Of a stretch of DNA of 64,000 bases, positions 25,968 to 64,000 are shown piece by piece; the stretch's first letter is position 1; every line of letters starts with the position of its first letter. The notes under the pieces are model-generated. The model was not told the DNA's origin and did no database searches. It was given only the letters and a program-made list of their open reading frames with translations. The DNA is taken from the NCBI GenBank assembly GCA_052390515.1, contig JBQTGV010000068.1:16760-80759 (forward strand). Reading direction: 5' to 3'. A program made the translations under genes and the position numbers. The DNA is from Candidatus Eiseniibacteriota bacterium (GTDB taxonomy: Bacteria; ARS69).

Positions 25968-27403
25968 CGTGCCGGCGCGGCCGGCAGACTCCACACCGCG
26001 ACTCCCGCGCTCCCGTCCGCATCGGGCAGCAGCCGGGCTCCCGACGCCTCGAGAAAGCGCACGAGCGGCTCCGGCCTGCAGCGAAGGGAGCTTCCCGCCA
26101 CGGCGAGAAACGCCGCGCGGTCGGGGTCGAGCCGCTCGGGGAAGGACCAGCGGTTCCGGAACTCGACGCGCACCGGGGTCCTCTCGCCCCAGACCGCGTG
26201 GATGCGTTTGCGCGCTTCGGTATCGCAGAGGATCACCGCGCCCTCCGGCGTGACCGCGTGGAGCAGCCGCACCTCCGCGTCGACGCCGCGCAGAAGCGCG
26301 TCATGGCCCGCGTGGACCACCGCGCAGGCGGCCAGCGCGACGGCGCCCACGCCGCCGGCGAGGAGTCTCACGGGCACGCGCCGCGTCCAGCGGTCGAGCA
26401 TCTCGACGTAGGCCAGAAGGAACATCGGCAGCACCGGCACCAGGAAGCGCAGGCCCACCACCGCGCTGGCCGGCCACCCGCCGGCCGTGTCGCGGTAGTA
26501 GTACAGGCAGAAGAAGAGCGTCGTCCCCAGCGTGACCGTGCGCACGAACCAGCGGTCCCGGCCGCGGTAGAAGAGCACGCCCAGCAGCATCAGCGGGAAC
26601 ACGGCCAGCAGCGCCGATCCGTAGTGCACCGCTCCCGGCACGAGCTCGTGCAGCCCGAACTGCCCTTCCATGCCGATGTCGGCGCGGTCGTCGCGGTAGC
26701 CGGACGTCCCGCGCCACCACCGTCCGAACGCGACGTGCTGGTACACCGCCAGGGCGACACCGCCGGGCACGAGCCCGGCGAGAAGCGTCGCGAGGCGCCC
26801 GGCGGGGACACGGCGGCGCGCACACTCCAGGGCCGCGGCGAGCACGAACAGCGCCGCGAGCACCACGTGCGTCGTCCGTACGAGGCACGACGCACCGAGC
26901 CACGCGCCGGCCAGCAGGGCGCCGCGGCGCGTGTCGCGGCGCCAGGCGGCCCACGCCAGCAGGAACAACACGCCGGCGGCGACGTCGCTCATGAGGGTCC
27001 GCGCGTAGTAGACGAGAGTCGGGTGCGCCAGGTACAGCAACGAGCCCCACGCGGGGAGCTTCGCCTCTCGCAGGATCCGGGCGAACACCAGGAATCCGAC
27101 GAGATGCAGCAGCGCGTTCGCCGCGAACGTGGCGCGCCACTCGGGCGCCGCCAGCGGCGCGAGCAGGAGCGGCCAGAGCGGGGCGAACTTGCTGACCTCG
27201 TGCCCGCCCGGGCTCTCGACGCGGCTGATCGGGTCGACGCCGGCGACGTCGCTGTAGATGGTCCCCGCGCGGTAGACGAACGCCGTCGAGAGGTACGTCG
27301 ACTCGTCGATGACGGCGAAGGTGCGCGGCCAGGCGAGAACGAAGAGCACGGCCCAGACGACTGCCGCCGCCATTTCGAGCCGCACGCCGGAAGGGCGATC
27401 CAC
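25463..27403 (-). CDS. Polytopic membrane protein, GT-C (ArnT/PMT-like) fold suspected, with a long low-complexity tail overlapping the convergent gene
   Basis: N-terminal loop FAVIDESTYLSTAFVY, many TM helices, then a soluble domain ending GVAVWSLPAAP near 25970. There is no stop codon until 25463, so the last ~168 codons run antisense to gene 24495-25967. Confidence 0.6.
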   Translation of the reverse strand: MDRPSGVRLEMAAAVVWAVLFVLAWPRTFAVIDESTYLSTAFVYRAGTIYSDVAGVDPISRVESPGGHEVSKFAPLWPLLLAPLAAPEWRATFAANALLHLVGFLVFARILREAKLPAWGSLLYLAHPTLVYYARTLMSDVAAGVLFLLAWAAWRRDTRRGALLAGAWLGASCLVRTTHVVLAALFVLAAALECARRRVPAGRLATLLAGLVPGGVALAVYQHVAFGRWWRGTSGYRDDRADIGMEGQFGLHELVPGAVHYGSALLAVFPLMLLGVLFYRGRDRWFVRTVTLGTTLFFCLYYYRDTAGGWPASAVVGLRFLVPVLPMFLLAYVEMLDRWTRRVPVRLLAGGVGAVALAACAVVHAGHDALLRGVDAEVRLLHAVTPEGAVILCDTEARKRIHAVWGERTPVRVEFRNRWSFPERLDPDRAAFLAVAGSSLRCRPEPLVRFLEASGARLLPDADGSAGVAVWSLPAAPARQPPPPSGRTQRRKPSRQRGTGASTRPPARAASDRPKRSRGVTRTVAKDPWRIRPAIPSPTSEATPGARYSTGSITWTSPPGAYQGSASSRSSEKNGAGNVAANSMRSRRSRAASSESRSTRDHRPGAASCATETASSTAAPTMPARPAEPRATATAKSMERTTNASQ

Positions 27404-27406
27404 GCG

Positions 27407-29812: not shown

Positions 29813-29985
29813 AATTCGCCCTCTCCGCAGTCTGCCCGAGGAAGATCCGGGACCGGCCCGCCTCTTGGCAATGCCCTTCCCGGGCCTCGCCTTCGCCCCC
29901 GGCTGTCGCGGAATCGCCGGTTTGATACACTGTTACGGATCCCGGACGGGCGAACCTGTCCGGCCACCGTCCCCGGGGCGAGGTC

Positions 29986-31629
29986 ATGACGACAATCACG
30001 AAGTGGACGCGAGCGGCTCGCGGGGCCGCGGTCGCGCTCGTCGCCGCGGGAGCCGTCCCGACGGCCGGAGCAGCCATCCTGCGGGTGCCCGACGACCACA
30101 CGACGATCCAGAGCGCGGTCGCCGCCGCCGTCCCCGGCCAGGACGAGATCTGGGTGTCGGCGGCGGGGTCGCCGTACGTCCTCCCGTCGACGCTGATTCT
30201 CGTCGGCGGAGTGGACTACCGAGGAGGCTGGGATGCGCTCTTCCTGAGTCAGGACGCATCGCGGACCCGCATCCATCTCGCCCAGGATTCCACCGGCAGC
30301 GCGGTCGACGCCGCGCTTCTCGGCGCCGGGGATCTCTTTTCTCACTTCACCGTCGGGCCGCCGGTCAAGCCGGCCACGTTCACCACGGTGAACGGCGCGG
30401 GCATGTTCATCGGTTCCGGCTCACCGACCATCGCGAACTGCGTGTTCGAGAACAACGTGTCCCGGGACGCCGGAGGAGCCATCCAGATCGCCGCCGGCTC
30501 GGCCGCCTACATCCTCGACTGCACGTTCGACTCGAACGAGACCGGGCTCGTGGCCGGCGGCGGGCGCGGCGGCGCGATCTCCGTGGCGTCCGGATCCAAC
30601 GGAGTGCGCATCGAGCTCTGCCGCTTCACCGGCAACTGGTCCGACCGCGCCTCGGTCACGCTCTCCGCGGCGGGCGGCGCGCTCTTCACGCGGTCCGGGA
30701 TCCGGCTGGAGCGGTGCAAGTTCGAGGACAACTACTCCGGCTTCCACGGCGGCGCGCTGTTCGTCGTCGACGCGGACCTTCGCGCGTGGGGCAACCTCTT
30801 CTACGCCGACTCGGCGGCGCGCCACGGCGGCGCCATCTACCACCAGAACGGCAGCGGCGAGCACAACGGCTCCCTCATCGAAGACTGCGTCGCCGGAGCG
30901 GGAACGGGCGAGATCGGGAACGGCGGCGGCATTTACTTCGAGCGCGGCTCGAACCGATTCCTCGACGGATACGTGCGGCGGTGCACGGCGACCCAGGGCA
31001 ACGGTTTCTCCGACGGTGTCGGCGGGGCCTTCTACTTCTTCGAGCCGCTGGCCGGTTCCGCGGTCCGCCGCACGGAGATCAGCGGGAACCGGGCCCAGGT
31101 CGGGGGCGCAGTCGGGGTGCAGGGCACCACGACGGTCACCTTCTCGGACGCTGCCCTGGAGGCGAACACGATCGTCGCGAACTACGCGGCCATCGGAGAC
31201 GCGGCGCGCTACGGAGGCGGCGGCGTGCACATCTTCGCCGACTTCATCGGAGAGATCGTCGACAACATCATCGCCGAGCAGGAGAACGGTGCCGGCATCT
31301 CCTGCGAGGGGCTGCTGGCTTCGCCGAACATCCGCTTCAACTGCGTCTGGAACGGCCCCTCCAACTCGGATCCGGAGTACGGACAGGACTGCGTGGATCG
31401 GACGAACATCAACGGCAACATCCGCTCGAATCCGCTGCTGTGCTGCTTCTCGGGCGGGTGCGTTCCCGCCGGATCGCCGCCTCCCGACTTGCAGCTGAGC
31501 GCGGCGTCCCCATGCCTCGGAGCGGGCGAGGGCGGCGTGGACATGGGCAAGTACGGGTCGACGAACTGCACGACCCCGGTATCCCTCGAGCCCGCGTCGT
31601 GGGGGGCGATCAAGGCTCTCTACCGTTGA
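29986..31629 (+). CDS. Secreted right-handed parallel beta-helix repeat protein
   Basis: Signal peptide (AAVALVAAGAVPTAGAA). Repeated GGA(I/L/F) turns (DAGGAIQI, RGGAISV, AGGALFT, HGGALFV, HGGAIYH, NGGGIYF, VGGAFYF, VGGAVGV, GGGGVHI). Cys-rich C-terminal part ending SWGAIKALYR. Confidence 0.75.
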   Translation: MTTITKWTRAARGAAVALVAAGAVPTAGAAILRVPDDHTTIQSAVAAAVPGQDEIWVSAAGSPYVLPSTLILVGGVDYRGGWDALFLSQDASRTRIHLAQDSTGSAVDAALLGAGDLFSHFTVGPPVKPATFTTVNGAGMFIGSGSPTIANCVFENNVSRDAGGAIQIAAGSAAYILDCTFDSNETGLVAGGGRGGAISVASGSNGVRIELCRFTGNWSDRASVTLSAAGGALFTRSGIRLERCKFEDNYSGFHGGALFVVDADLRAWGNLFYADSAARHGGAIYHQNGSGEHNGSLIEDCVAGAGTGEIGNGGGIYFERGSNRFLDGYVRRCTATQGNGFSDGVGGAFYFFEPLAGSAVRRTEISGNRAQVGGAVGVQGTTTVTFSDAALEANTIVANYAAIGDAARYGGGGVHIFADFIGEIVDNIIAEQENGAGISCEGLLASPNIRFNCVWNGPSNSDPEYGQDCVDRTNINGNIRSNPLLCCFSGGCVPAGSPPPDLQLSAASPCLGAGEGGVDMGKYGSTNCTTPVSLEPASWGAIKALYR

Positions 31630-33533
31630 AGGCGGCGCCGCGGGAATCGTCCGGCGCCCTCCCGCGCACGATCCCTGGTGCGGCGCAGGGCGCCGCCGCT
31701 CTCGCCGCCGTCGCGCTGCTGGAGATCGCCGGGCATGCGCGCTCCGCGCCTGCGCTTCTGTCTCCGCTGCGCGACCTCTCGCTCGTGGCGTCCGCCGGCG
31801 CGTTGCTCGGGGCCTTCCTGGGGCTCCTCCGGGGCGCCCGCCCGCTCGCCTTCCTCTCCCCCTTCGGGGTCGCGCTCGGCGCCGGGATCGCGCTGCACTT
31901 CTGGCTGCGCACCGTCTCCGGGGCCGGCGTCCTGGAGGGCGGAGGCTCGCGCGACGCCCTGCGCGGAGCGGCCGGGCTCGCCGCTGGTGCAGTCCTCGGC
32001 CAGCTCCTCGGCTTCGCTCTGGGGCGAACGCGCGCGCTTCGCCCCCCGCCCGCCGGCATCTCGATCGCCTTCGTCGTGCTGCTGTCGCTGCCCGCGCTCC
32101 TCCCCGCCCCGAGGCCGCAGCTCGACGAGTCCCGGAAGAACCTGCTGCTGCTGTCGATCGACACGCTGCGTGCCGATCGCCTCGGCGCGTCGGGGCATCC
32201 GGACGGCCTGAGCCCGCATCTCGACCGCCTGGCCAGGACCGCGACGACGCACGTCGGTGCGGTGACCCCGCTGCCGCGCACGCTGCCGTCCATGTCCTCG
32301 GTGATGACCGGACTGCCTCCGCACTCGCACGGCGTGCGTGACAACTTCCACTACGCGCTCGGCGAGAGGGCGGAGACGCTCGCCGAGGACCTTGCGCGCC
32401 GCGGCTGGGCCACCGCGGCGGTGAACTCGAATCCGGTCCTGTCCCACGACAGCGGCATCTTCCAGGGGTTCGCCTCCGCCAACGACCGCGGCGACGACTG
32501 GTCGCGCCTGGGACTCGTCCGCGGAGCGTCGCGCATCGCCACGCTTCTGGCCATGCGCCGCGGCGATCGGGACGCCGTCATCACCGAGCTCGCCTTGTCC
32601 TGGTTGGCGCGCCGTCCCTCCGGACGGCCCTTCTTCCTCTGGGTCCACTGGCTCGCGCCGCACATGCCGTACGAGCCGTCGTTCCCCGACGATCGCCGCT
32701 TCGATCCGGCGTACGAAGGCGCGCATCTCCGCGCGCTCGACTATGGCGGCATCTCCAAGGGAGACATGACCTACCGCAACCCGCTGTCCCCGCGCGAGCG
32801 CGAGCATGCCGTCCGGCTCTACGACGGGGAGGTCGCGACGGCCGACCGGGCCGTGGGACGGCTGCTTCGCTCGGTGGAGCGCGACCGGCTGCTCGACGAC
32901 ACGGTCGTCGTGCTGGTTGCCGACCACGGCGAGAGCCTCCTCGAACACGGGTACTTCTTCAACCACGGCGATTTCGTCTACGGGCCCGCGGCGCACGTCC
33001 CGCTCGTCGTGCGGGACCCGCTCGCTCCGGCCCCGATCCTCGACACCGCTCCGGCCTCCCTGAACGACGTGCGCGGGATGATCGCGGCGAAGCTGGAGGA
33101 CGTCCCCGCGCCACCGCGCCCGGACGCACTCTTCTGCGAGTCGGACTTCTGTCGCTTCCCCGACCTGAACGACCGGCTCGGGCTCCTCCTCCCCCTGGAG
33201 GTCGCGCAGGACACCGGTCCGATTCCGGACTGGAAGGAGCGCTGGGAGGAGCAGGCCATCCGGGCGAAGCAGCGCTTCGTGCAGCGCGAAGGGTGGCGAC
33301 TGGTCCGCTCGCCCCGGAAGGACGGCGACGCGCACGAGCTCTTCGACCTGGCCCGCGATCCGGGCGAGACCACGAACGTCGCCGGGGAGAACCCGGAGCG
33401 GTTGGCCGAGCTCGCGCTCCTGCTGGACCGCTGGATCTCGGCGGGCGAGGAGGCCGACGACACCGGTGAGGTGCGCGCGCCGGACGAGGACACGCAGGAG
33501 CAGATGCGCGCTCTCGGTTACGTGGGCCGCTGA
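31626..33533 (+). CDS. Membrane-anchored sulfatase-fold (alkaline-phosphatase superfamily) hydrolase/transferase with a Thr nucleophile
   Basis: About 5 N-terminal TM helices, then LLLLSIDTLRADRLG, PLPRTLPSMSSVMTGLPPHSHG (Thr where sulfatases have Cys/Ser), and VVLVADHGESL. TTG 31626 overlaps the upstream stop (TTGA). Confidence 0.75.
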   Translation: MKAAPRESSGALPRTIPGAAQGAAALAAVALLEIAGHARSAPALLSPLRDLSLVASAGALLGAFLGLLRGARPLAFLSPFGVALGAGIALHFWLRTVSGAGVLEGGGSRDALRGAAGLAAGAVLGQLLGFALGRTRALRPPPAGISIAFVVLLSLPALLPAPRPQLDESRKNLLLLSIDTLRADRLGASGHPDGLSPHLDRLARTATTHVGAVTPLPRTLPSMSSVMTGLPPHSHGVRDNFHYALGERAETLAEDLARRGWATAAVNSNPVLSHDSGIFQGFASANDRGDDWSRLGLVRGASRIATLLAMRRGDRDAVITELALSWLARRPSGRPFFLWVHWLAPHMPYEPSFPDDRRFDPAYEGAHLRALDYGGISKGDMTYRNPLSPREREHAVRLYDGEVATADRAVGRLLRSVERDRLLDDTVVVLVADHGESLLEHGYFFNHGDFVYGPAAHVPLVVRDPLAPAPILDTAPASLNDVRGMIAAKLEDVPAPPRPDALFCESDFCRFPDLNDRLGLLLPLEVAQDTGPIPDWKERWEEQAIRAKQRFVQREGWRLVRSPRKDGDAHELFDLARDPGETTNVAGENPERLAELALLLDRWISAGEEADDTGEVRAPDEDTQEQMRALGYVGR

Positions 33534-34723
33534 TCCCGCGCGGCCACGAGCGTGCGCGCGCGGGCCAGAGCCGCGGCTCCGAACCGCGCGACGATGGAGT
33601 CCTCCGCCTCGTCGAGCCGGTCCCTGCGCGCCAAGTCCTCGGGCCCGCCGGTAGTGGCCCCACCGAAGAGCTCCAGCTGGGGTGCGTCCACGAGCCCCGC
33701 CAGCCCCACGCCGAGCAGGCGCACCGCCGAGCCGCGACGGTCGACGCCCCGGAAGAGGTCGGCGGCGGCCCGGAAGAGCGTGGTCGCCGAGCTGGTGGGC
33801 GCGGCGAGCGTCCTCGACCGCGAGAGCGTGGTGAAGTCGGCCAGGCGCACCTTGAGCTGCACGGTGCGCCCCGCAAAGCCCGCGCGGCGCGCCCTTCGCG
33901 CCACGGACTCGGCCAGCGCCAGCAGCACGCCCTCGAGCACGCCCGCGTCCCCGACGTCCTGGGGGAAGGTCGTCTCGCGGGAGAGGCTGCGGGCGCGCGC
34001 ATCGGGAACGACGGGCCGGTCGTCCCGGCCCTCGGCCAGCGCGATCCACCTCTCCGCGGCGCCACCCAGCGCGTGCGACAGGCGGGCCGGATCCGCGGCG
34101 GCGAGCGCCGCCATCGTGCGGACGCCCAGCCGCTGCAGCGCCGCCCGCGTCGCCGGGCCCACGCCCCACATGCGATCGAGGGGCAGCGACTGCACGAAAC
34201 GGCGGGCGTCGTCCGGCGGCACCACGACGAGTCCGTCCGGCTTGGCGTGCGCCGAGGCGAGCTTCGCCACGAACTTGGAGTCGGCGAGGCCGACCGACGC
34301 GGTGAGCGCGAGCTCCTTGCGGATCCTACGGCGAAGCGCCACTCCGATCTCGCGTGGCTCTCCCAGTAGCCGCCGTGTTCCGGTCAGATCCAGGAACGCT
34401 TCGTCGAGTGAGAGGGGCTCGACCGCCGGCGAGAACTCCGCGAAGACGCGCCGCAGCGTCCGCGACGCGGTCGTGTACTTCGCGTGGTCTCCGTGGATGA
34501 CGACGAGGCCCGGGCACCGGCGAACGGCCTGGGCCATCGGCATCGCGGAGCGGACCCCGAAGCGTCGCGCCTCGTAGGATGCGGAGGACACGACGCCGCG
34601 CCGGTCCGCGGCGCCGCCCACCGCCACGGGCTTTCCCGCGAGAGACGGATCGTCGCGCACCTCCACCGACGCGTAGAACGCGTCCATGTCCACGTGCGCG
34701 ATGACCCGGGTCCAATCCACCAC
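33518..34723 (-). CDS. dinB: DNA polymerase IV (Y-family)
   Basis: VIAHVDMDAFYASVEVRDDPSLAGKPVAVGG, SYEARRFGVRSAMP, PLSLDEAFLD, LTASVGLADSKFVAKLAS, LPLDRMWGVGPAT. GTG 34723 lies 14 nt after the upstream stop. Confidence 0.9.
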   Translation of the reverse strand: MVDWTRVIAHVDMDAFYASVEVRDDPSLAGKPVAVGGAADRRGVVSSASYEARRFGVRSAMPMAQAVRRCPGLVVIHGDHAKYTTASRTLRRVFAEFSPAVEPLSLDEAFLDLTGTRRLLGEPREIGVALRRRIRKELALTASVGLADSKFVAKLASAHAKPDGLVVVPPDDARRFVQSLPLDRMWGVGPATRAALQRLGVRTMAALAAADPARLSHALGGAAERWIALAEGRDDRPVVPDARARSLSRETTFPQDVGDAGVLEGVLLALAESVARRARRAGFAGRTVQLKVRLADFTTLSRSRTLAAPTSSATTLFRAAADLFRGVDRRGSAVRLLGVGLAGLVDAPQLELFGGATTGGPEDLARRDRLDEAEDSIVARFGAAALARARTLVAARDQRPT

Positions 34724-34737
34724 GGTTCCGTCGCCGG

Positions 34738-36153
34738 TCAGTGCTCGATCATCCGCCAGTACACTTCCGGATCGAAGTCCGGACTGTTCTCCGCATCGTG
34801 GCAGCCCCGGCAGCTGTTCATCAGCAGTGCCGCGCCGTAGCTGCCGTCGCGGGCGTGGGTGGTGCCCTTGCCGTGGCATACCTCGCACTGCACGTTGACC
34901 AGTGCCGGCGAACCCTGAGCGTGCGGGCTGTACCCGGCTGGATCGCCATGGCCGGTCACGTGGCAGCCGAAGCACTCCGGCAGCGCCTCCGTCCCGGCGA
35001 TCTCCAGCGTCTGGAAGGCGCTGGAGTGCGGCGTCTCCAGCCAGAGCCCGTACTCGCGCTCGTGGCATCCTGCGCAGCTCTCCGCTCCCACGTACCAGTG
35101 GCCGTCCGCGGCGCGCCGTTCCTGTGCCTTCGCCACGGCCTGCTCCTTCATCAAGTCGTTCAGATTCCGCTGGAACACGTCGACGAGCTCCGCCGTGTCG
35201 GGATCCTCGGCGGTGTCCCGATCGAGGACCGCCTCCTCCGCGGCGATTCCGAGCACGTCGCCGTTCTCGACGGCCACCTGCGCGACCCCGAGCGCCTGGC
35301 CGCGGTCCCCCGCGACGACGTACACGGCACCCCCGTGCTCGGCGAGCGTCCGGCCGCGCCCCATCGCGGCGGAACCGACGACGACGACGTCGACCTGGCC
35401 GGCCAGGTCCTCGCCGAGGGCCTGCGCCGCCTCGAGCGGCATGTGGGCGAGTAGCACGACGAGATCCGCGTCCCGCCGCAGGCGCGCGAGCACCGGCTCC
35501 AGCGACGGGACCGACTCGGCGAAGTCCACCTCCGCGGTGTGCGTCGTATCCGCGGGCGGCTTGCGCGTGACCGCGGTGATCCCCACGCGAATGCCGGCGC
35601 GCTCGACGATCCTCGAGGAGGGCAGCAGCAGAGATCCGCCCGCCGCGCGCAGGTTCGCGGAGACGAAGATCCCGTCTGGGGCCGCCAGGGACCGGAGGAT
35701 CTCCGCGGGCAGACGAAGGTCCTCTTCGCCGAGCGTGGCGGCATCGTAGCCCTGACGCTTCATCACTTCGACGAGGAAAAGGGCGCGCGCCTCCCAGGTC
35801 GCCGACTGGTTGCCGGTGAAGCCACCGGCGTCCACCAGGACGACCTCGCCCTCGTCACGGTACGCGGCGATCCGACTGGCCCGCCGGGCCAGTCCCCCTC
35901 GGGGGCTTCGGTGTCAGCCGCAGGGCGTCGTCTCGCCCATCACGGACTGCGAGGACAACACCACCAGTTCGGGGCGGCGTCCGTCTTCGAACAAGTCCGT
36001 CGCCGGGGGACGGTCGATCTCCTCGAGGAGCGTCCCGATTTCGCGCTCGAGCGCGGCCTTCGCCGAGTCGGCGTCCGCTCCGGCGCCCAGCTCCGCGGGA
36101 GCGGCTCCGGCCAACGCGAAGGACGCGACCACGACGCGAAGCGGGACGTGCAT
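34738..36153 (-). CDS. Exported tetrahaem c-type cytochrome with a metallophosphatase-like N-terminal domain. One in-frame TGA at 35916-35914 (candidate selenocysteine, otherwise a pseudogene)
   Basis: ATG 36153 with SD GGAGGTGG. Signal peptide MHVPLRVVVASFALAGAAPA. The frame runs continuously through the TGA (…GETTPCG-TGA-HRSPRGGLARRASRIAAY…). Four CXXCH motifs are present (CAGCH, CFGCH, CEVCH, CRGCH). Confidence 0.6.
35870..35916 (-). other. Candidate SECIS-like structure immediately 3' of the in-frame UGA
   Basis: RNA: UGA CACCGAAG CCCCC GA GGGGG A CUGGCCC GGC GGGCCAG. The perfect 7-bp stem (35876-35892) has its apical loop 28 nt after the UGA. Not folded computationally. Confidence 0.35.
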
Positions 36154-36289
36154 GAACCACCTCCGTGACACCGAACGCGGCAACCCACAGATCGGCGCGG
36201 GGTTCCGCCTCGTCGAGCGACCGATTCTAGCAAACGCGGATTCGGTTCGTCTTGTACACGCGCTTGACACGGGGACCGCCGCGGTGCTC

Positions 36290-36495
36290 TGATCCGCCCG
36301 TGCCGCCGGTTCCGGCGGCACAGACAGCTCGAGGAACGAAGGGAAGCCGGTGCGAATCCGGCGCGGCCCCGCCACTGTGAGCGGAGACGCCTCCCGCAAG
36401 ACGCCACGGCACGTAGCCGGAAGGCGCGGGATGCGGATGACCCGCGAGCCAGGAGACCGACTCGGGCATTCACGGGTACCGCCTTCGAGGGTGAG
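36290..36495 (+). promoter_or_regulatory. Cobalamin (B12) riboswitch aptamer
   Basis: Matches the conserved core AGGGAAGCCGGTGCGAATCCGGCGCGGCCCCGCCACTGTGAGCGGAG (B12 box GCCACTG at 36371-36377) and the downstream AGCCAGGAGACC (36447-36458). Located in a 444-nt gap upstream of an operon containing a TonB-dependent receptor. Confidence 0.85.
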
Positions 36496-36561
36496 GCAGG
36501 TGACGTCGATCTCGGGTAGCGCGTTCGTCCGCACTCCTCCCGACAGCTTCATCGGATCGCC

Positions 36562-36592
36562 GCTCCTCCTTTTCATCGAGGCCGGGAGGAGC
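36562..36592 (+). promoter_or_regulatory. SD-sequestering hairpin (riboswitch expression platform)
   Basis: GCTCCTCC (36562-36569) is complementary to GGAGGAGC (36585-36592), which contains the ribosome-binding site 5 nt before ATG 36598. A second anti-SD-like CTCCTCCC lies at about 36534-36541. Confidence 0.6.
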
Positions 36593-36597
36593 AAGTC

Positions 36598-38190
36598 ATG
36601 CCTTCTCGACTCCGATGGGGAATACGCGTTCTCGCGCTGATTCTCCTGGCACGAACCGCCACCGCCTCGCCGCCGGCGCGGTCGGCGTACGTTCTCTCGG
36701 CGAACGACGCGAAGGTCACGCGCGTCGACCTGGACACCGGCGCGGTACTCCCCGACGTGACGACCGCCGGCGCCTTCGCGAACCGCATCGAGCGGGACGC
36801 GGACGGCCGGCTGGGCGCGATCGTCTCGTCGGGATCGGACGAGGTGGCCCTCTTCGACTTCCCCACGGAGACGGTCTTCGGAACCGTGCCGCTTCCGGCG
36901 GGATCGAATCCGTGGACCGCGGAGATCGTCGGAACGCGCGTCTTCGTCACCTGTCTGCTGACCGACACGCTCTACGAGATCGACGCGACGACCCTCGCGG
37001 TGACGGACAGCGCCGCCACCGGCACGGCGCCGGAAGGAATCGCGGTGACCGGCGGCCACCTGTACGTCGCGAACACGGGGTTCGACTTCGGCACGTTCGG
37101 GTACGGGCCGGGCACGGTCACGGTGCTGGATCTCGACGATCTCTCCGAGGTCGCTACCGTTCCCGTTTCGGTGAACCCGCAGGACTGCCTCGTCGCCTCC
37201 GACGGGAACGTCCACGTGGTGTGCACGGGGAACTTCGGTCCGGTCACCGGATCGATCGACGTGATCGATCCGGGAAGCAAGACCGTCATCGCGTCCCTCC
37301 CCGTGCCGGCATACCCGGGCGGCGGTGCGGTCTCGCCGTCCGGGTCGGTCCATCTCTCGGTGACGACGCCCTCGTTCGGCTCGGAGATCTGGACGTACGT
37401 CGCCGCTTCGCTCGTGCTCGTGCACGACGGATCGAACCCGCTGCTGCCGTCGTTCGACTTCTACGGCGAGCCGGCCGCGACCGCGGCGCAGGAGCTCTTG
37501 GTGCCGGACTTCTCCGCCGATCTGCTCCTCGTGGAGATGCCGGAGGCACCGGGAGCTCCCACCGCGGTGCTCGTGGGCGATGGTCCGATCGACGTGGCGG
37601 TCATCGATGATCCGGGTCCGGTGCCCATCGTCCTCCGCGGCATCTCCGCCGAGAACGTGGCGTCCGGGATCCGCCTCTCGTGGAACGCGCTGCTCGAGGC
37701 GGACGTCGCCGGATTCGTCGTGGAGCGTTCCGTCCCGGCCCGCGGCGAGACCCGGCGAGTGGCCGACGATCTTCCGGCGGCCCGGAACGCGGAGTGGACC
37801 GACGAGGCCGTCACCGACGACGAGCGTTACGTGTACCGCGTGGGCGCCGTCGGCTTCCGCGGCGGGCTCATCTGGTCGGAGGAGACGTCGATCGTGCGCC
37901 GCAGCGCGCCGAGCCGGCTCGCGTTCGCCCGCGTGCGCCCCAACCCCGCGCGCGGACCCGTCTCCTTCGACGTCGTCGTCCCGCGGGATGGTGCCGTCGA
38001 GCTCGAGCTGCTGGATGCCGCCGGGCGCCGGATCGCGCGGCGAGCAGTGGGCGGCGTGCCCGCGGGCTCGGTGACGTTCGAGTGGGACGGAAGGGATGAC
38101 ACCGGCACGGCGGTAGCGTCAGGCATGTACTTCGCGAGGGTCCGGTCCGGCGGGGAGGTCGCCGTCGAGCGCGTGCTCCGCGTGCGATGA
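36598..38190 (+). CDS. Secreted YVTN-type beta-propeller protein with an Fn3-like module and a FlgD-Ig/T9SS-type C-terminal domain
   Basis: Signal peptide MPSRLRWGIRVLALILLARTATA. Propeller-like repeats (AYVLSANDAKVTRVDL, VFVTCLLTDTLYEID, LYVANTG, VHVVCTGNFG). CTD RPNPARGPVSFDVVVPRDGAVELELLDAAGRRI...VTFEWDGRDDTGTAVASGMYFARV. Confidence 0.75.
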   Translation: MPSRLRWGIRVLALILLARTATASPPARSAYVLSANDAKVTRVDLDTGAVLPDVTTAGAFANRIERDADGRLGAIVSSGSDEVALFDFPTETVFGTVPLPAGSNPWTAEIVGTRVFVTCLLTDTLYEIDATTLAVTDSAATGTAPEGIAVTGGHLYVANTGFDFGTFGYGPGTVTVLDLDDLSEVATVPVSVNPQDCLVASDGNVHVVCTGNFGPVTGSIDVIDPGSKTVIASLPVPAYPGGGAVSPSGSVHLSVTTPSFGSEIWTYVAASLVLVHDGSNPLLPSFDFYGEPAATAAQELLVPDFSADLLLVEMPEAPGAPTAVLVGDGPIDVAVIDDPGPVPIVLRGISAENVASGIRLSWNALLEADVAGFVVERSVPARGETRRVADDLPAARNAEWTDEAVTDDERYVYRVGAVGFRGGLIWSEETSIVRRSAPSRLAFARVRPNPARGPVSFDVVVPRDGAVELELLDAAGRRIARRAVGGVPAGSVTFEWDGRDDTGTAVASGMYFARVRSGGEVAVERVLRVR

Positions 38191-40106
38191 TGTTCGCTCA
38201 CGTTCTGGCTGCGCTTGCCGCCGGATTCGCTGCCGGCGCGGACGTGGCACCGCCGCCGGCCGGCTCGATCTGGGATCTCCCGGAGGTGGAGGTTCGCGCG
38301 GACGCGCTTCGCGACCCGATGGCGCCGTTCCCGATCTCCGGACGCCGCATCGGCCCCGAAGAGGTGCAGCGCCGCGCCGGGGGCGACCTGCGCGACGTGC
38401 TGCTGCCCCTCGCGGGACTGCGCGTGACGTCGCCCGGCGGACCGTGGGCGGGCTCGTCGGTGTCCCTGCGCGGGTCGACCGCCGACCAAGTGCTGGTCCT
38501 AGTCGACGGGAGGCGATGGAACCGCGCACAGGGCGGCGGCGTCGATCTCTCGACGATCGCCCTGTCCTCGGTGGAGAGCGTGGACGTGTTCCGCGGCGGC
38601 GCGTCGCCCTTCTGGGGCAGCGAAGCCATCGGCGGAGCGATCCTCGTGCACACCCGGCGCGCCGACGCGGGGGCGTGGAGCGTGCGCCTCGGTTCGGGAT
38701 CCTTCGGGGAGCGCTCGCTGGCGGCGAGCGCGGCGACGACCCTGCCCGCCCGCGGGTGGCGGTCGCTCGTCACCGGACAGCTCTTCGACACGTCCGGCGG
38801 CTACTCCTACGACGACGCCGCGCGCGGCGCGGAGCGAGCCGTGCAGAACGGCGACGTCCGCCGTGCGCAAGCCGACCTGCGCGCCGACGGCGGAGCCGGA
38901 CGGTTCACCGTGCGAGCCGACGTCGGCATCCTGGATTCCGAGCGGGGCGTTCCCGGCAGCGCCGAGTTCCCCACCCCCAGCGCGCGGCTCGAGGATCGGC
39001 GAGCCACGGCTGGACTGCGCATCGAGGACGCCTCGTCCACGCGGCGACCGGCCCTCGACGTTTCCGTGCTGCGACAGGTGCGACACTATCGCGAGAACGA
39101 CGAGATCTTCGGGCCGGTCGACGAATCCCACCGCAACCTCCGCGTGGAGGCCGATGCCGCCGCCGCAGGCTCGCGGCGAAGCCTGGCATGGCGCGCGGCG
39201 GCCGGCGCGGCGACCGATCGGCTGGACAGCACGACCGACGGGATCCGCCGGCGGGACAACGGCAACGCGCGCGGCCAGCTCTCGTACGACCGCCGCGTCG
39301 CCGGCATGGCCGTGCGCTGGATGCTGGCCGCCCGGCTGGACGTGACCGACGGATTCGCCCCGTCCGCCTCGCCGCGCGCCGGCGTTCGCATCGTGCCGTC
39401 GCCCGGCCGACTCGCGTTCTCCGCATCGGCCGGCACGTCGTACCGGACGCCGTCCTTCGACGAGCTGTTCTGGGCGCCGCGCGCGACCGCGGCGGGCAAC
39501 CCGCACCTCCGGGGAGAGCACGGGCGGGATCTCGACCTCGGCGTCGAGCTGGGCGCGCTGCCGCTCCGGGGCGCGCTGTTCGTCGGGGCCTTCGTGCGCG
39601 ACGTCGACGACCTCATCCAGTGGATTCCGGGCGCCTCGGGAATCTGGCGGCCGCACAACGTCGGGCGCGTCCGGATCTCCGGAGCCGAGGCGGAGGGCCA
39701 CGCGGGGGCGAAGCTCCCCCGCGGTGCCGGCGTGCGCATCTCCGGCTCCGCGACGCTGCTCGAAGCCGTGGACCGGACCGGGGAGCCGAACGTGGACGGC
39801 CAGAGGCTTCCTTACCGGCCGCAGTGGAGCGGAGCGGCCGCGGCCGTGCTCACCCACCCGGTGGTCGGGGAGCTGGAAGCGGCCTGCCGCCACATCGGCG
39901 ACGTGTACGTGACCCGGGCGAACACGAAGACCCTGCCGGGCTCGTTCGTCGTCGACGTGCTGTGGCGGCGCGTTCTCGCGCGGGGCGCGCGCGTCGACGC
40001 CGGCGTCACCAACGTGGGCGATGTCTTCGCGCGGGACTTCCGCGATTTCCCGCTCCCCGGGCGATCCTGGAACCTGGCCCTGACCTGGGAGAGGAGGCCT
40101 TCATGA
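38187..40106 (+). CDS. btuB: TonB-dependent outer-membrane receptor, probably cobalamin-specific (BtuB-like)
   Basis: Plug-domain motifs (DLPEVEVRA, DLRDVLLPLAGLRV, VSLRGSTADQVLVLVDGRRWN, VESVDVFRGGASPFWGSEAIGGAILV). Barrel with a C-terminal GRSWNLALTWE. Under the B12 riboswitch, with ATGA overlaps on both sides. Confidence 0.8.
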   Translation: MMFAHVLAALAAGFAAGADVAPPPAGSIWDLPEVEVRADALRDPMAPFPISGRRIGPEEVQRRAGGDLRDVLLPLAGLRVTSPGGPWAGSSVSLRGSTADQVLVLVDGRRWNRAQGGGVDLSTIALSSVESVDVFRGGASPFWGSEAIGGAILVHTRRADAGAWSVRLGSGSFGERSLAASAATTLPARGWRSLVTGQLFDTSGGYSYDDAARGAERAVQNGDVRRAQADLRADGGAGRFTVRADVGILDSERGVPGSAEFPTPSARLEDRRATAGLRIEDASSTRRPALDVSVLRQVRHYRENDEIFGPVDESHRNLRVEADAAAAGSRRSLAWRAAAGAATDRLDSTTDGIRRRDNGNARGQLSYDRRVAGMAVRWMLAARLDVTDGFAPSASPRAGVRIVPSPGRLAFSASAGTSYRTPSFDELFWAPRATAAGNPHLRGEHGRDLDLGVELGALPLRGALFVGAFVRDVDDLIQWIPGASGIWRPHNVGRVRISGAEAEGHAGAKLPRGAGVRISGSATLLEAVDRTGEPNVDGQRLPYRPQWSGAAAAVLTHPVVGELEAACRHIGDVYVTRANTKTLPGSFVVDVLWRRVLARGARVDAGVTNVGDVFARDFRDFPLPGRSWNLALTWERRPS

Positions 40107-41632
40107 AGCTGAGCGCGTTCACCGTGTCGACCGCCGTCCTCGCGGCGCAGCCGGCGCAGTCCGTCGTCGCCTGGGGACCGGAGGCGAACCTCTCCCTCAC
40201 CGCGACGGACTCCGAGACCGGACTCAATCACCGCCCGATGGCGATCACCTCGGACGGCACGTTCCACATCGTGTGGGCGGAGAAGGACGCCCCGAACCAG
40301 AACTACCGCGTCTGGACGAGACGACTCGAGAGCGGCACGTGGAGCGCGTCCGAGGTGATCGTGGACTACCTCGCCTCCGATCCGGGCACGAGCGGCGGGG
40401 CGAAGTATCCCTCGCTCGCCGCCGCCGGTGACGGGAGCCTGCACCTCTTCTGGCACGACTACCGCGTGGCCGGGATCAACAACATCGAGATCTTCACGAA
40501 GGCACGGGAGGCCGGCGGCGCCTGGGATCCGGAGCGGGTGGCGGACGTTCGCCTCACGGCCACGAGCCACCCCGAGACGCTCGGCGACAACGGATACGTG
40601 CCGACGCCGGGCGCGACGGCTGCCGGCGCGATGCACGTACTCTGGTACGACTTCCGTTACGATGGCCAGAGCGCCGAGATCCTGTCCAAGACCCGGCCAC
40701 CGGGAGGCTCCTGGGACCTCACCCCGGGAGACGCGGCGGACGCGCGCGTCACGCTCGACGCGGATCACTCGGAGCTCGTCGCCGCCGACGCGGACGCCGC
40801 CGGACGCGTGCACGCGGTCTGGCGCAGCGCCTCGGCCGGCACCCGGATCCTCTACGCCGAGCGCGATCCCCTGACCGGTATCTGGTCGAGCCCGATTCAG
40901 GTGGACGTCGCGGGCGCGGTGGCCGGTGCTCCCGCGCTCTCGCTCGACGGCGCCGGCCGCGTTCACGTCGTGTGGCCCGACTCCCGCAACGGCGGGCGTG
41001 CGCTCTGGACCCGGGTCCGCGAAGCCGGTGGCGCGTGGGGAGCGGAGTCGCGGCTTACCCGGCCCGCGGACGCCGCCGACGAACCTTCGCTCGACGCCGC
41101 GCCGGACGGGACGCTGCACCTCGTCTGGCAGGACGGTCGTGTCTCGCTGCTCTCGCCGAAGGTGTTCCACCGCGAGAAGGCACCGGCCGCGGCGTGGGAT
41201 ACGACGTACGCGTCGGACACGCGAGTGTCGCTCTCCACGGCGACCGCGGTGCGCTCCTCGGTGCTCTCGGACGACGACGGCGGCATCTTCGTCTGCTGGA
41301 AGGACCTCCGCACCGGCAGCTACGACATCTTCCTGCGGCGCGGCGGTCCCGCGGGCACCGGTGTGCCGGCGGCTCCGCCTTCACGTCCGCTGCTGGTTGC
41401 CGCGCCCAACCCGACGTTCGGCGAGCCCGTCCGCTTCGTGCGCGACGCCGTCGCCGCGCCCGCCGAGCTGACGATCCACGATGCGCTGGGCCGTCGTATC
41501 CGCACCCTGCGGGAGGGCGGCGAGTCCGCGTCCTGGGACGGCTCGACCGACGCTGGCGGGCGCGTGCCGGCAGGCGTCTACTTCGTCCGGTGGGGCGCCA
41601 CCGGCGCGGTGCGGGTCACGGTGATCCGATGA
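40103..41632 (+). CDS. Secreted BNR/sialidase-like beta-propeller repeat protein with a FlgD-Ig/T9SS-type C-terminal domain
   Basis: Signal peptide MKLSAFTVSTAVLAAQPAQS. Repeated blades (GTFHIVWAEKD, GSLHLFWHDYR, GAMHVLWYDFR, GRVHAVWRS, GRVHVVWPDSRNG, GTLHLVWQDGR, GGIFVCWKDLRTG). CTD APNPTFGEPVRF...LTIHDALGRRIRTL...WDGSTDAGGRVPAGVYFVRW. Confidence 0.75.
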   Translation: MKLSAFTVSTAVLAAQPAQSVVAWGPEANLSLTATDSETGLNHRPMAITSDGTFHIVWAEKDAPNQNYRVWTRRLESGTWSASEVIVDYLASDPGTSGGAKYPSLAAAGDGSLHLFWHDYRVAGINNIEIFTKAREAGGAWDPERVADVRLTATSHPETLGDNGYVPTPGATAAGAMHVLWYDFRYDGQSAEILSKTRPPGGSWDLTPGDAADARVTLDADHSELVAADADAAGRVHAVWRSASAGTRILYAERDPLTGIWSSPIQVDVAGAVAGAPALSLDGAGRVHVVWPDSRNGGRALWTRVREAGGAWGAESRLTRPADAADEPSLDAAPDGTLHLVWQDGRVSLLSPKVFHREKAPAAAWDTTYASDTRVSLSTATAVRSSVLSDDDGGIFVCWKDLRTGSYDIFLRRGGPAGTGVPAAPPSRPLLVAAPNPTFGEPVRFVRDAVAAPAELTIHDALGRRIRTLREGGESASWDGSTDAGGRVPAGVYFVRWGATGAVRVTVIR

Positions 41633-42666
41633 AGCGGCTCGTCCTTGGATTGCTGGCCCTCACCGGATGCGCGGAGAATCCGGGCGGGATCGAGACGCCC
41701 CATGACGCCGGCGGCGCCGCGCCGGTGCCGCCGCGAGTGCTCGTCGTGAACACCCTTTCCGAGACGCTCTCGACCCTCGACATCACCACCGGCGAGTTGA
41801 CCGCGCGCGCCGCCGACCTCGGAGCTTCGGCGAACCGCATCGAGATCTTTCCCGGCGGCGGCGGACTGCTCGTGGCCGCGTCCGGCGAGAACCGGGTCAC
41901 GTCGCACAACGGTCGCGACTTCGCCGAGCGCTTCGGGATCGACCTCGGACCGGGCTCGAGCCCGTGGCTCGCCGTGCCCCTGTCCATCGCCGAGGGCCTG
42001 GTGACGAACTGGCGGTCGAGCGACCTGCGCCGACTCGACCTCCTCGCGGGAAGCGCCGGCCCGCCGCTCGCGCTTTCGCCCGGACCCGAGGGATTCGCCG
42101 TCTCCGGACGCCGGGCCTGGGTGGCGTGCACCGGCTGGCAAGCGGACGGGCAGTTCGGCGAGGGCAGGCTCGACGTCGTGGATCTCGACGCATGGTCGGT
42201 GATCGCCCGGATCCCCGTCGGAAGGAACCCGCAGGAGGTGCTGGTGGACGACGCCGGTCGGATTCACGTGCTCTGCACGGGCAACTATGGAGCGCTGCCC
42301 GTCCCGGAGTGGGGCAGCGTCCACGTCGTGGACCCGGCGGCGCTCCAGGTCATCGGGATCGTTCCACTGGGTTCTTCACCCGGGCGCCTCGCCGCAGGGA
42401 TGGGAGACACGATCTGGGTCGCCGGATACTACGGTGGACTCCGCCGTTACGATGCCGCCTCGCTCGCCGTGTTCCCCGATCCGTCCGACCCTGCATTGCG
42501 CGCGGACGGACTCTCCGCGGTGACCTGGGACGAGGCGGGCGGAACGGCATACGTCACGAGCTTCGACCTCGACCTGCTCCTGGCGGTCGACGGCGTCACG
42601 CTCGCGGTGGTCGGAGTCTGGATCGTGGGCGACGGCCCCGTGGACGTGCGGGCGCTGCGACCGTGA
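41629..42666 (+). CDS. Lipoprotein, YVTN-type beta-propeller
   Basis: Lipobox LLALTGC. Repeats similar to gene 36598 (VLVVNTLSETLSTLDI, AWVACTGW, IHVLCTGNYG, GRNPQEVLV). ATGA overlap with the upstream gene. Confidence 0.75.
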   Translation: MKRLVLGLLALTGCAENPGGIETPHDAGGAAPVPPRVLVVNTLSETLSTLDITTGELTARAADLGASANRIEIFPGGGGLLVAASGENRVTSHNGRDFAERFGIDLGPGSSPWLAVPLSIAEGLVTNWRSSDLRRLDLLAGSAGPPLALSPGPEGFAVSGRRAWVACTGWQADGQFGEGRLDVVDLDAWSVIARIPVGRNPQEVLVDDAGRIHVLCTGNYGALPVPEWGSVHVVDPAALQVIGIVPLGSSPGRLAAGMGDTIWVAGYYGGLRRYDAASLAVFPDPSDPALRADGLSAVTWDEAGGTAYVTSFDLDLLLAVDGVTLAVVGVWIVGDGPVDVRALRP

Positions 42667-42667
42667 G

Positions 42668-43579
42668 TCAGCGGGGAGCGCCGAACGGCCACACCGCGTA
42701 GTTCACCGCGAGGCGCAGGGCGAAGTTGTGGATCACGCCCTCCTTGCCGGTGAACGTGGTCGAGTAGACCGAGCCGGTGAGCTGGTTCGGCGGAGGGGTG
42801 GATGTGGCGTCGAGGTGGGTGAGGTCGGCGTTCAGGCGAACGACGTCCTCGAGCCCGACGGAGACACCCCACCGATCCGAGAGCGCGACCCGCATGCCGC
42901 CGCCGACCGACAGGGCCCAGTCGGAAGAGTCGATCTGGAACACCGACAGGCCCGCCTCGCCGGCCGGGCTGAGCCCGATGTTCTCCACGCCCTCGACGCG
43001 CGTGGGAAGCGCGGAGTCGTACTCCAGGCGGATGACGTCGCCGTCGGACTTCTGCGTGAATACACCCGCCCCGACGGTCAGATACGGGAAGGCCCAGCCG
43101 CGCAGGACCGGCACCTCGTAGCTCACCGAAGCCAGGTACAGGTCGGTCAGCGCGTCGGACATCGCGCTCGTGGCCCGGACTCCGGGTTCGCCCTGGGCCT
43201 GGAAGTCCTCGCCCGCCAGGATGAGTCCTTCGAGGTCGAAGTTGCCGTCGATCGTGGCCAGCGCCGGGAACTGCACGCGGTAGCGCCCTCTCGAGTGCAT
43301 CCAGGTCGCGCCCAGGGACAGGCGTTCGTTCAACCGGTAGGTGCCGCGGAGGCCGTACCAGGGGGACGGATCGACGTCGAGGGTGCCGTTCGAGCGCGCG
43401 ATGATCGGACCCTGGAAGGCGGAGACGTCCAGGACGAACGACGCGTCCGCCAGGGAACCCTGGTCGATGTACCCGGACACCCACTCGATCCGGGCGCGGT
43501 CCAGTGCGTGCTGGGCGAGGACCGGGCCGGCACCCAGGCAGAGGACGAGCGGAGCGAGGAGCGAAAGGGCTCGGTTCAC
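42668..43579 (-). CDS. Outer-membrane beta-barrel protein (OmpA-N/OmpW-like), unknown function
   Basis: Signal peptide MNRALSLLAPLVLCLGAGPVLAQ. Alternating strands. The C-terminal region has an aromatic residue (…LAVNYAVWPFGAPR). Confidence 0.65.
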   Translation of the reverse strand: MNRALSLLAPLVLCLGAGPVLAQHALDRARIEWVSGYIDQGSLADASFVLDVSAFQGPIIARSNGTLDVDPSPWYGLRGTYRLNERLSLGATWMHSRGRYRVQFPALATIDGNFDLEGLILAGEDFQAQGEPGVRATSAMSDALTDLYLASVSYEVPVLRGWAFPYLTVGAGVFTQKSDGDVIRLEYDSALPTRVEGVENIGLSPAGEAGLSVFQIDSSDWALSVGGGMRVALSDRWGVSVGLEDVVRLNADLTHLDATSTPPPNQLTGSVYSTTFTGKEGVIHNFALRLAVNYAVWPFGAPR

Positions 43580-58614: not shown

Positions 58615-58722
58615 CGGCCCGCTCCGGCCGATCCACGACCCCTTTCGGCTCAGCCCGCCGGGTCCATCGTCTGTTATATTCGCCGGCGCCGCCGCCACCG
58701 CCGCCCGGGAGTCCAAACACCC

Positions 58723-61694: not shown

Positions 61695-62020
61695 CGGTCC
61701 GGCCTCCGCACCGACTCCGTAACCCAGGCCGCATACGCTTCGTTCGCCGAACGTACGGCGACGCGGAGGATCGCCGGCGTCTCGTACGGGTGCGCGCGGC
61801 GTACGTGCTCCTCCGCTTCCGCGGCGAGATCCGCCGTCGTCTTGCCCACGATCTGGAACTCCGCGTCGTCGCGGAGCTCGCCCTTCCACCGGTAGAAGGA
61901 GCGCACCGGGAAGTACGTCGCGCAGGCCACGACGCCGGCAGCCACCAGTTCGCGGGACAGTCGCCGCGCGTCCTCCTCGGACGCCACGGTGGTGACGATC
62001 TCGACCAGCTCGCGGCTCAT
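61691..62020 (-). CDS. cutA: Divalent-cation tolerance protein CutA
   Basis: VEIVTTVASEEDARRLSRELVAAGVVACATYFPVRSFYRWKGEL…HPYETPAIL. Confidence 0.85.
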   Translation of the reverse strand: MSRELVEIVTTVASEEDARRLSRELVAAGVVACATYFPVRSFYRWKGELRDDAEFQIVGKTTADLAAEAEEHVRRAHPYETPAILRVAVRSANEAYAAWVTESVRRPDR

Positions 62021-63942: not shown

Positions 63943-64000
63943 TTTGTTCCGAGCTCCGGAGGAAGGGCGAGAGTAGCGTTAAGGTAGGGAGCGAGGCGCG

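Follow-up and report, generated by a model that had tools for sequence, protein, structure and literature searches.

The window analyzed here, a stretch of 64,000 nucleotides (nt) on contig JBQTGV010000068.1 of a Candidatus Eiseniibacteriota bacterium, carries a cobalamin (B12) riboswitch followed, on the plus strand, by four overlapping genes that we call g1 to g4. We consider it likely that these genes form a cobalamin-repressed operon for outer-membrane corrinoid uptake of the BtuB-BtuG type. An initial annotation of the region had suggested a corrinoid-scavenging system that would be "analogous but undescribed"; the scavenging role is retained here as the best reading, and we infer the corrinoid binding itself. 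Judging from sequence comparisons, however, the core of the operon is a divergent homologue of the known BtuB-BtuG system and not an analogous new one; what stands as undescribed is the third protein, g3, the secretion-type anchoring of a BtuG-like protein and the occurrence outside Bacteroidota.

The features on which the argument rests are listed below, with window coordinates and lengths in amino acids (aa) for the encoded proteins; SD stands for Shine-Dalgarno sequence, AF2 for AlphaFold2 and T9SS for type IX secretion system.

36300..36479 (+): cobalamin riboswitch aptamer (Rfam core 36341-36458), from RF00174 and our model R1
36562..36600 (+): predicted expression platform, with anti-SD GCUCCUCC at 36562-36569, SD GGAGGAGC at 36585-36592 and start codon at 36598-36600, from folding
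36598..38190 (+): g1, putative secreted BtuG-like protein of 530 aa, from signal peptide, YVTN and FlgD_ig matches
36679-37608 (+): g1 residues 28-337, seven-bladed YVTN propeller, from AF2 model and domain matches
37633-37896 (+): g1 residues 346-433, Fn3-like module, from AF2 model
37921-38187 (+): g1 residues 442-530, T9SS-like/FlgD_ig C-terminal domain, from AF2 model and FlgD_ig match
38187..40106 (+): g2, BtuB-like TonB-dependent transporter of 639 aa, Plug and predicted 22-strand barrel, from Pfam, NCBIfam and PDB matches
40103..41632 (+): g3, putative secreted seven-bladed propeller protein of 509 aa, from BNR_4 and FlgD_ig matches and AF2 model
40166-41350 (+): g3 residues 22-416, propeller with blade motif hHhVWxDxR, from AF2 model
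41393-41629 (+): g3 residues 431-509, FlgD_ig/T9SS-like C-terminal domain, from FlgD_ig match
41629..42666 (+): g4, putative lipoprotein of 345 aa with a BtuG-like YVTN propeller, from lipobox, YVTN repeat and paralogy with g1

Riboswitch and operon layout

Scanning the whole window with the Rfam covariance models returned a single match, RF00174 at 36341-36458 on the plus strand, with 88.3 bits (E 1.8e-20) against a gathering score of 31.5 bits; the riboswitch core pointed out in the initial annotation is thus borne out by the very search that had been proposed for it. Our own covariance model R1, made from the window and related aptamers and yielding only rough E-values, widens the aptamer to 36300-36479 (136 bits) and places its 3' end about 120 nt upstream of the g1 start codon. 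Folding of the whole leader gave a z-score of about 0, which is uninformative at 72% G+C, and we therefore relied on the covariance model instead.

Downstream of the aptamer, the SD GGAGGAGC, separated by 5 nt from the ATG at 36598, can pair with the anti-SD GCUCCUCC. The resulting hairpin (-17 kcal/mol) has a z-score of only -1.7 compared with shuffled sequence, which is weak evidence taken alone; a predicted SD-sequestering hairpin is nevertheless found at the equivalent site, with differing sequences, in all seven loci of the four-gene type that were folded, namely the window and six relatives, as the claim of such a hairpin would have it. No intrinsic terminator was found after the aptamer by a terminator scan, so B12 control probably acts on translation, at the g1 start. 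A promoter scan with the sigma-70 consensus, which promoters of the Fibrobacteres-Chlorobi-Bacteroidetes (FCB) group may not fit, found nothing.

The four open reading frames (ORFs) lie on the plus strand 3' of the riboswitch and follow one another through ATGA overlaps at 38187, 40103 and 41629, exactly as first annotated. The next gene is convergent (minus strand), with 1 nt between its stop codon and that of g4, so that the operon ends there. As for the other genes of the window, we deemed likely genes the long ORFs with the high third-position GC content typical of local coding sequence; Pfam scans of these, including every neighbor between about 25.4 and 47.9 kb, found neither btuFCD nor cobalamin-synthesis genes, in line with the earlier remark that no BtuF/BtuCD is adjacent.

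The transporter and the BtuG-like propellers

The architecture of g2 is that of BtuB, with Pfam matches to Plug (67.8 bits) and to TonB_dep_Rec_b-barrel (101.3 bits), in an operon under a cobalamin riboswitch. Its best-scoring NCBIfam transporter family is TIGR01779 (TonB-B12), and its best matches in the PDB are Escherichia coli BtuB (1e-17), then BtuB2, BtuB3 and BtuB1 of Bacteroides thetaiotaomicron. On these matches, g2 is a BtuB-like TonB-dependent transporter. The domain calls made beforehand were mostly right for the four proteins: YVTN and FlgD_ig for g1, Plug and barrel for g2, a weak BNR_4 and FlgD_ig for g3, and the lipobox LTGC with YVTN repeats for g4.

The three propellers had been described as unrelated-looking, a view that does not survive for g1 and g4. 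These two share 32% identity over 320 residues (E 2e-29), and a profile-profile comparison aligns them over 310 columns with a probability of 100% and an E-value of 7e-62; by sequence, they are paralogues. Compared alone with PDB sequences, g1 retrieves chains named "YncE family protein" (8PTD, 8PTF and 8BLW_B, E 4e-7), which are in fact BtuG1 of B. thetaiotaomicron (PMC10404256; bioRxiv 10.1101/2024.02.16.580637). With a profile of 35 g1 homologues, the match to BtuG1 reaches E 7.8e-17, as a single collinear alignment that spans 177 profile positions; BtuG2 and BtuG3 come at E 2e-3 to 8e-3, and E. coli YncE (3VGZ) and Leptospira Lp49 (3BWS) score well below BtuG1. The YVTN domain of a Methanosarcina S-layer protein, 1L0Q, outscores BtuG1 with this profile, through several overlapping repeat registers. 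The g4-family profile finds BtuG1 (1.3e-7), BtuG3 (1.1e-5) and BtuG2 (3.5e-5).

Structure prediction points the same way. In a Foldseek search of the PDB with the AF2 model of g1 (predicted local distance difference test, pLDDT, 90.6), ranks 2 to 17 are all structures of BtuG1, BtuG2 or BtuG3, with target template-modeling (TM) scores of 0.72-0.78 and root-mean-square deviations of 3.0-4.0 Å, the exception being the two-domain chain 8BLW_B (TM 0.43). BtuG proteins are thus the propeller-only folds closest to g1, and the same would hold for g4, going by its 310-column alignment to g1. The comparison with BtuG structures that had been suggested for the three propellers accordingly gave a positive answer for the g1 model, and generic propellers only for g3. 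Almost every propeller from the related loci presented below can also be aligned with the matching BtuG1 fragment, at roughly 30% identity across some 160 residues. This fragment scores 30.6 bits against PF16819 (DUF5074), whose gathering score is 27.2 bits, and the g1 relatives P0053 and P0054 score 39-49 bits; as these and a further propeller from a related locus (L026) pass where g1 and g4 fail, the family link is a transitive one. From sequence and model taken together, g1 and g4 are remote but detectable homologues of BtuG, and direct binding of corrinoids by both appears somewhat probable.

The two paralogues would reach the cell surface by different means. The lipobox of g4 is LTGC, with Cys14 encoded at nt 41668-41670 and followed by A-E-N-P, and all 35 g4-family members inspected have the lipobox cysteine, which a pattern picked out in 31 of them and visual inspection in the other 4. 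Among those 31, the second and third residues past this cysteine are acidic in 65-71% (consensus A-E-D-P); they resemble, by sequence alone, the lipoprotein surface-export signal of Bacteroidota described for BtuG (PMC6143338), here outside that phylum. As for g1, it has an ordinary signal peptide and no lipobox, and it shares with g3 a C-terminal FlgD_ig domain (42.6 bits for g1 and 28.8 for g3, threshold 27). Scores against the T9SS sorting domain TIGR04183 are 22.4 and 18.4 bits, respectively, for a cut-off of 23, and the g1 and g3 family profiles match the C-terminal domains of PorU and PorZ in the PDB. These matches suggest that g1 may be secreted through a type-IX-like route, and the post-cysteine residues that g4 may be exposed at the surface.

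The third propeller and related loci

With a weak BNR_4 match in Pfam (29.5 bits), g3 is predicted by AF2 to be a seven-bladed propeller (pLDDT 88.8; predicted TM-score, pTM, 0.79), whose Foldseek matches are generic, with TM-scores of 0.5-0.7 to a PL42 lyase, PL24/25, GH145, Photorhabdus lectins and sialidases. Its family profile matches only C-terminal domains in the PDB, and no catalytic residues could be assigned in it. About 55 full-length homologues (39-78% identity), all unnamed or called BNR-repeat, lie on contigs carrying g1/g4 homologues, and among the 80 loci described below, g3 is confined to the four-gene type. An exhaustive search returned only about ten 50%-identity clusters of collinear g3-like proteins of about 500 aa. 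We conclude that g3 is a small operon-specific family of uncharacterized function, for which a role in corrinoid binding or relay is conceivable but doubtful.

Two other assignments of g3 were considered and rejected. It is not a general marker of B12 loci, as its remote relatives P0150 and P0151 (26-34% identity) occur in unrelated contexts and its blade repeat is common in very long proteins. Homology to BtuK, BtuH or BtuJ found no support either from the PDB profile search or from Foldseek: BtuK (4R5O) is neither among the top 50 Foldseek matches of g3 nor in the profile search at E up to 10, and g3 has no PKD domain, no lipobox and no likeness to 4R5O. The blade repeat itself (hHhVWxDxRxG...I, from window 40103-41380) was found in 9479 proteins at E<=1e-3 in the exhaustive search, many of them 900-4500 aa long and matching in 5-12 stretches, apparently a large unnamed propeller-repeat family.

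How far the arrangement extends was assessed by scanning one genome per species with search patterns taken from the family's own motifs, which yielded 80 loci. The phylum labels, which are those of the metagenome-assembled genome (MAG) records, are Gemmatimonadota, Eisenbacteria, Zixibacteria, Ignavibacteriales, KSB1/Caldithrix, Cloacimonadota, Neomarinimicrobiota, Cytophagia, Acidobacteriota, Deferribacteres and simply "bacterium". In 77 of the 80, the propeller gene has a g2-like transporter gene as its same-strand neighbor. The recurrence of the four-gene synteny, which had been put forward as a check, is confirmed: the order g1-g2-g3-g4 is complete in seven genomes (L001, L002, L004, L005, L006, L008 and L010), cut by contig ends in two (L003 and L007) and reduced to g2-g3-g4 in one (L076), and together with the riboswitch it recurs in Gemmatimonadota-labeled, Eisenbacteria-labeled and unclassified MAGs. 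Nearly all the other loci have a single propeller gene directly downstream of the g2-like transporter gene on the same strand, which is the btuB-btuG order of Bacteroides.

Rfam finds the riboswitch in nine of the ten loci of the four-gene type; of the two-gene loci, 19 were sampled and 8 have it, most misses being contigs cut upstream. With our own model, 57 of the 80 loci have one upstream in the same orientation (Rfam confirming a sample of 17); counting only the 64 loci whose upstream sequence exceeds 700 nt, the figure is 56 (median distance from the first gene, 378 nt). In the simpler loci, the riboswitch lies immediately before the transporter gene. In L045, two tandem same-strand riboswitch matches (6626-6879 and 7475-7679) stand before one transporter-propeller pair.

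Anchors vary among these propellers: some are about 340 aa long with a lipobox, others about 430-650 aa with a C-terminal domain of the g1 type, and one Zixibacteria protein has a dockerin. The latter case is L020 (10004-11221), where a BtuG-like propeller encoded after a riboswitch-controlled transporter gene ends in Dockerin_1 (35.8 bits), a Pfam domain also carried by P0056 and P0058. A Cytophagia-labeled MAG (L026, 5978-11902) has, in this order, a riboswitch, a transporter with an N-terminal CarboxypepD_reg domain, a BtuF-like Peripla_BP_2 gene and a 634-aa propeller. Since this propeller scores above threshold for both DUF5074 (27.9 bits) and the T9SS domain Por_Secre_tail PF18962 (33.3 bits), it is by its sequence matches a formal member of the BtuG family, in which a T9SS anchor would replace the lipid. 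Another variant is that of lipoprotein propellers of about 340 aa encoded after two tandem TonB-dependent transporter genes (L044, L053, L058 and L062, and also the cut loci L056, L059 and L075). These belong to Ignavibacteriales and Neomarinimicrobiota and mostly have no cobalamin riboswitch within reach, that of L062 being in the opposite orientation; their ligand may be a different one, or their regulation may differ.

Around the operon of the window, the neighbors are not related to B12. They lie at 34738-35835 (-), 33518-35068 (-) and 42668-43579 (-) and encode a multi-heme cytochrome c (Cytochrome_C554/C7), a DinB/ImpB-type polymerase and a small outer-membrane beta-barrel protein, the last being the product of the gene convergent with g4. 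Past the operon, 16 kb further downstream at 58615-60204 (+), a gene without a riboswitch before it encodes a NicO-family (nickel/cobalt) transporter that has a DsbD_2-like region. Sulfatase-domain proteins are encoded at 29697-33533 (+), within a 1278-aa ORF whose 800 N-terminal residues have no Pfam match, and at 62020-63978 (-), where the domain is fused to a long TPR region. Three coding-like ORFs have no Pfam match: 1-2172 (+), 25463-27406 (-) and 60624-61892 (+), of 724, 647 and 423 aa, respectively. Finally, a 503-aa antisense ORF (35914-37425, -) opposite the riboswitch and g1, and many similar ones, are by-products of the G+C content (72% in the window) rather than genes, as their codon-position G+C is not coding-like.

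Competing readings and comparison with known systems

Several observations speak against a B12-uptake operon of the BtuB-BtuG type and have to be set beside those above. For the transporter, g2 scores 128.4 bits with TIGR01779, well short of the equivalog cut-off of 599.7, and 84.1 bits with NF007926 for a cut-off of 836; no gene for an inner-membrane B12 transporter was seen nearby in the Pfam scans of likely genes. For the BtuG-like propellers, neither g1 nor g4 is matched by PF16819 at any E-value up to 10, and Lp49 and the hydrazine synthase beta subunit score at least as well as BtuG with the g4 profile, so that the link between g4 and BtuG rests largely on its paralogy with g1. As for g3, neither Foldseek nor its family profile against the PDB gave any similarity to known B12-binding proteins, and P0150 and P0151, as said, sit in unrelated neighborhoods. 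Lastly, eight loci with enough upstream sequence have no riboswitch. Half of these eight encode propellers of the short lipoprotein type, with tandem transporters; of the five remaining loci of that type, four have contigs that break off too near the genes on the upstream side for a verdict. The wider family need not act on B12 in all its members.

The residues that would bind the ligand are part of the same difficulty. Our comparison used only the aligned part of BtuG1, in which Arg141, Arg244 and Glu249, three ionic corrinoid contacts of BtuG1 (bioRxiv 10.1101/2024.02.16.580637), could be placed, and no BtuG2 contacts. These three align with W106, T210 and approximately G214 of g1, so that residue identity is not conserved; W106 and T210 are invariant or nearly so in the g1 family and chemically unlike their BtuG1 counterparts, and G214 is variable. 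Where BtuG1 has its mapped contacts, g1 and g4 have a signature of their own (NPW, PEG, NPQ, HVxCTG and GDGP). Because HVxCTG was one of the search patterns, its invariance across the 80 loci is partly circular and is not independent evidence. Fold and ancestry are therefore common to these proteins and BtuG, binding chemistry not demonstrably so.

One could then imagine that g2 imports corrinoids while the propellers, without binding any, are co-expressed surface, S-layer or adhesin-type YVTN/BNR proteins or structural or assembly partners of the receptor. Among solved structures, it is indeed the S-layer domain 1L0Q that g1 and g4 match most strongly by sequence, the contacts just described differ, and g3 resembles lectins and glycan lyases rather than B12 binders. 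The 1L0Q match, however, is made of overlapping repeat matches, whereas that to BtuG1 is a single collinear stretch, and BtuG is the nearest propeller-only fold. It is moreover hard to explain why a generic surface protein should have a transporter gene for neighbor in 77 of 80 loci, across several phyla, and stand under a B12 riboswitch in 56 of 64. We consider this alternative unlikely.

We find it still less probable that the operon handles another ligand needed when B12 is scarce, such as cobalt, a corrinoid precursor or lower-ligand compound, or a glycan-bound nutrient, g3 being an enzyme (BNR_4, lyase or glycosidase type). B12 riboswitches also control genes other than those of B12 transporters, g2 lies well below the BtuB equivalog threshold, and the folds nearest to g3 are enzymes (PL42, PL24/25, GH145) and sugar-binding lectins. 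Yet TonB-B12 is the best family for g2 and BtuB proteins top its structure matches. No catalytic residue could be assigned in g3, and its fold likeness to enzymes says little given that its blade repeat is present in thousands of long multi-repeat proteins. Furthermore, BtuG binds cobinamide as well as cobalamins (PMC10404256), so that precursor uptake falls inside a BtuB-BtuG-type function. That the riboswitch would control g1 only, g2 to g4 being driven by internal signals and forming no single B12-regulated unit with it, agrees with apparently translational control at the g1 start and with the lack of a terminator found after the aptamer, but is very improbable given the 4-nt ATGA overlaps, which leave no space at three junctions for internal promoters or independent ribosome entry, the same gene order in seven related genomes with a riboswitch only before g1, and the simpler loci where the riboswitch directly precedes the transporter gene.

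If the operon is, as we favor, a cobalamin-repressed one of the BtuB-BtuG type, it could work as follows. At low intracellular B12, the riboswitch would leave the ribosome-binding site of g1 open, g1 would be translated, and translation of g2, g3 and g4 would follow by coupling through the ATGA overlaps; with B12 bound, the same site would be locked in the hairpin. The TonB-dependent corrinoid channel would be g2. Anchored by its lipid, g4 would most likely hold the corrinoid in its central cavity and pass it to g2, with which it might form a complex, possibly covering the barrel like a lid, in the manner known from Bacteroides. Exported and held on the surface, or released from it, through its Fn3 spacer and type-IX-like C-terminal domain, g1 would most likely act as an outlying scavenger feeding g4/g2. 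Finally, g3, strictly co-conserved with g1, g2 and g4, would probably be a further relay or accessory part, comparable to BtuK or BtuH without being homologous to them. A broader scenario, which we put forward only tentatively, is that BtuG-type capture is an old FCB-wide trait with lipid, T9SS or dockerin anchors, and that the four-gene clade has a relay from g1 to g3 to g4/g2, in which g3 would represent a class of corrinoid-binding or transfer proteins not seen before, unrelated to BtuG, BtuH, BtuJ and BtuK.

Few microbes make B12 and many need it, and its capture shapes communities. In the literature, homologues of BtuG, which binds B12 with femtomolar affinity (PMC6143338, PMC10404256), were stated to be exclusive to Bacteroidetes on the basis of a BlastP search of 313 gut genomes (PMC6143338), and lipoprotein-capped TonB-dependent transporters were likewise said to seem exclusive to them (PMC10404256); a 2026 review covers BtuH and BtuJ outside Bacteroidota, but not BtuG (PMC13616437). 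Our literature search found no report joining BtuG with Gemmatimonadota, Ignavibacteria, Zixibacteria, Marinimicrobia or Chlorobi, and for DUF5074 it returned mentions in just two papers, both unrelated. The spread over several non-Bacteroidota lineages of the FCB group, the alternative anchors and the four-gene form with g3 look unreported. This four-gene form, with its two BtuG paralogues and g3, belongs to a Gemmatimonadota/Eisenbacteria-labeled clade. BtuG-like propellers thus stand beside B12-riboswitch-controlled transporters in many environmental lineages, with interchangeable anchors, which yields testable candidates for new corrinoid-binding proteins, opens a route to the evolution of lid-type transporters and allows a better annotation of hundreds of proteins labeled "YncE family" or "hypothetical".

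Among known systems, T9SS cargo proteins with type A C-terminal sorting domains (TIGR04183/PF18962, as in PorZ and PorU) resemble g1 and g3 in the Ig-like domain of about 85 residues in which both end, a domain that passes the FlgD_ig threshold and stays below the TIGR04183 cut-off. YVTN surface proteins such as the Methanosarcina mazei S-layer protein (1L0Q), E. coli YncE (3VGZ) and Leptospira Lp49 (3BWS) belong to the same repeat class and have the seven-bladed fold. The highest raw scores are those of 1L0Q, but they come from repeat matches in several overlapping registers, and none of the three is tied to a TonB-dependent transporter under a B12 riboswitch.

Closer in genetic context are BtuK1/BtuK2 and BtuH/BtuJ, accessory lipoproteins of the B12 loci of B. 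thetaiotaomicron (PMC13616437, PMC8941943), a species in which multiple B12-binding surface proteins per locus, including propellers, are known; BtuK1 and BtuK2 are propeller lipoproteins of one B12 operon, and one of them binds B12 (PMC13616437). As proposed for g1 and g3, they are extra surface proteins in riboswitch-controlled B12 loci, thought to relay corrinoids to BtuBG, and BtuK is likewise a seven-bladed propeller. As a group, they offer the nearest functional precedent for g3 and for g1 as an additional copy. Unlike them, g3 has a secretion-type C-terminal domain, lacks the PKD domain and the lipobox, and matches neither BtuK (4R5O), BtuH (7BIZ) nor DUF4465 proteins. Its likeness to BtuK is one of position, and homology is not supported by the comparisons.

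The nearest system remains BtuB-BtuG of B. thetaiotaomicron (BtuB1G1, BtuB2G2 and BtuB3G3; PDB 8BLW, 8BM0 and 8P97; PMC6143338; PMC10404256). The window differs from it in its host, which is not a member of Bacteroidota and whose nearest relatives are MAGs labeled Gemmatimonadota, "bacterium" or Eisenbacteria, and in having two BtuG-like paralogues, one of which, g1, is encoded upstream of the transporter and ends in an Fn3 spacer and a T9SS-like C-terminal domain in place of a lipid anchor; further differences are the scores of g1 and g4 below the DUF5074 threshold and the lack of adjacent btuFCD genes. It shares with that system a riboswitch before a btuB-like transporter gene, itself beside a gene for a seven-bladed YVTN-type propeller, which for g4 is a predicted lipoprotein, as BtuG is; and this placement beside a btuB-like gene under a cobalamin riboswitch characterizes the window as well as 56 of the 64 related loci with sufficient upstream sequence.

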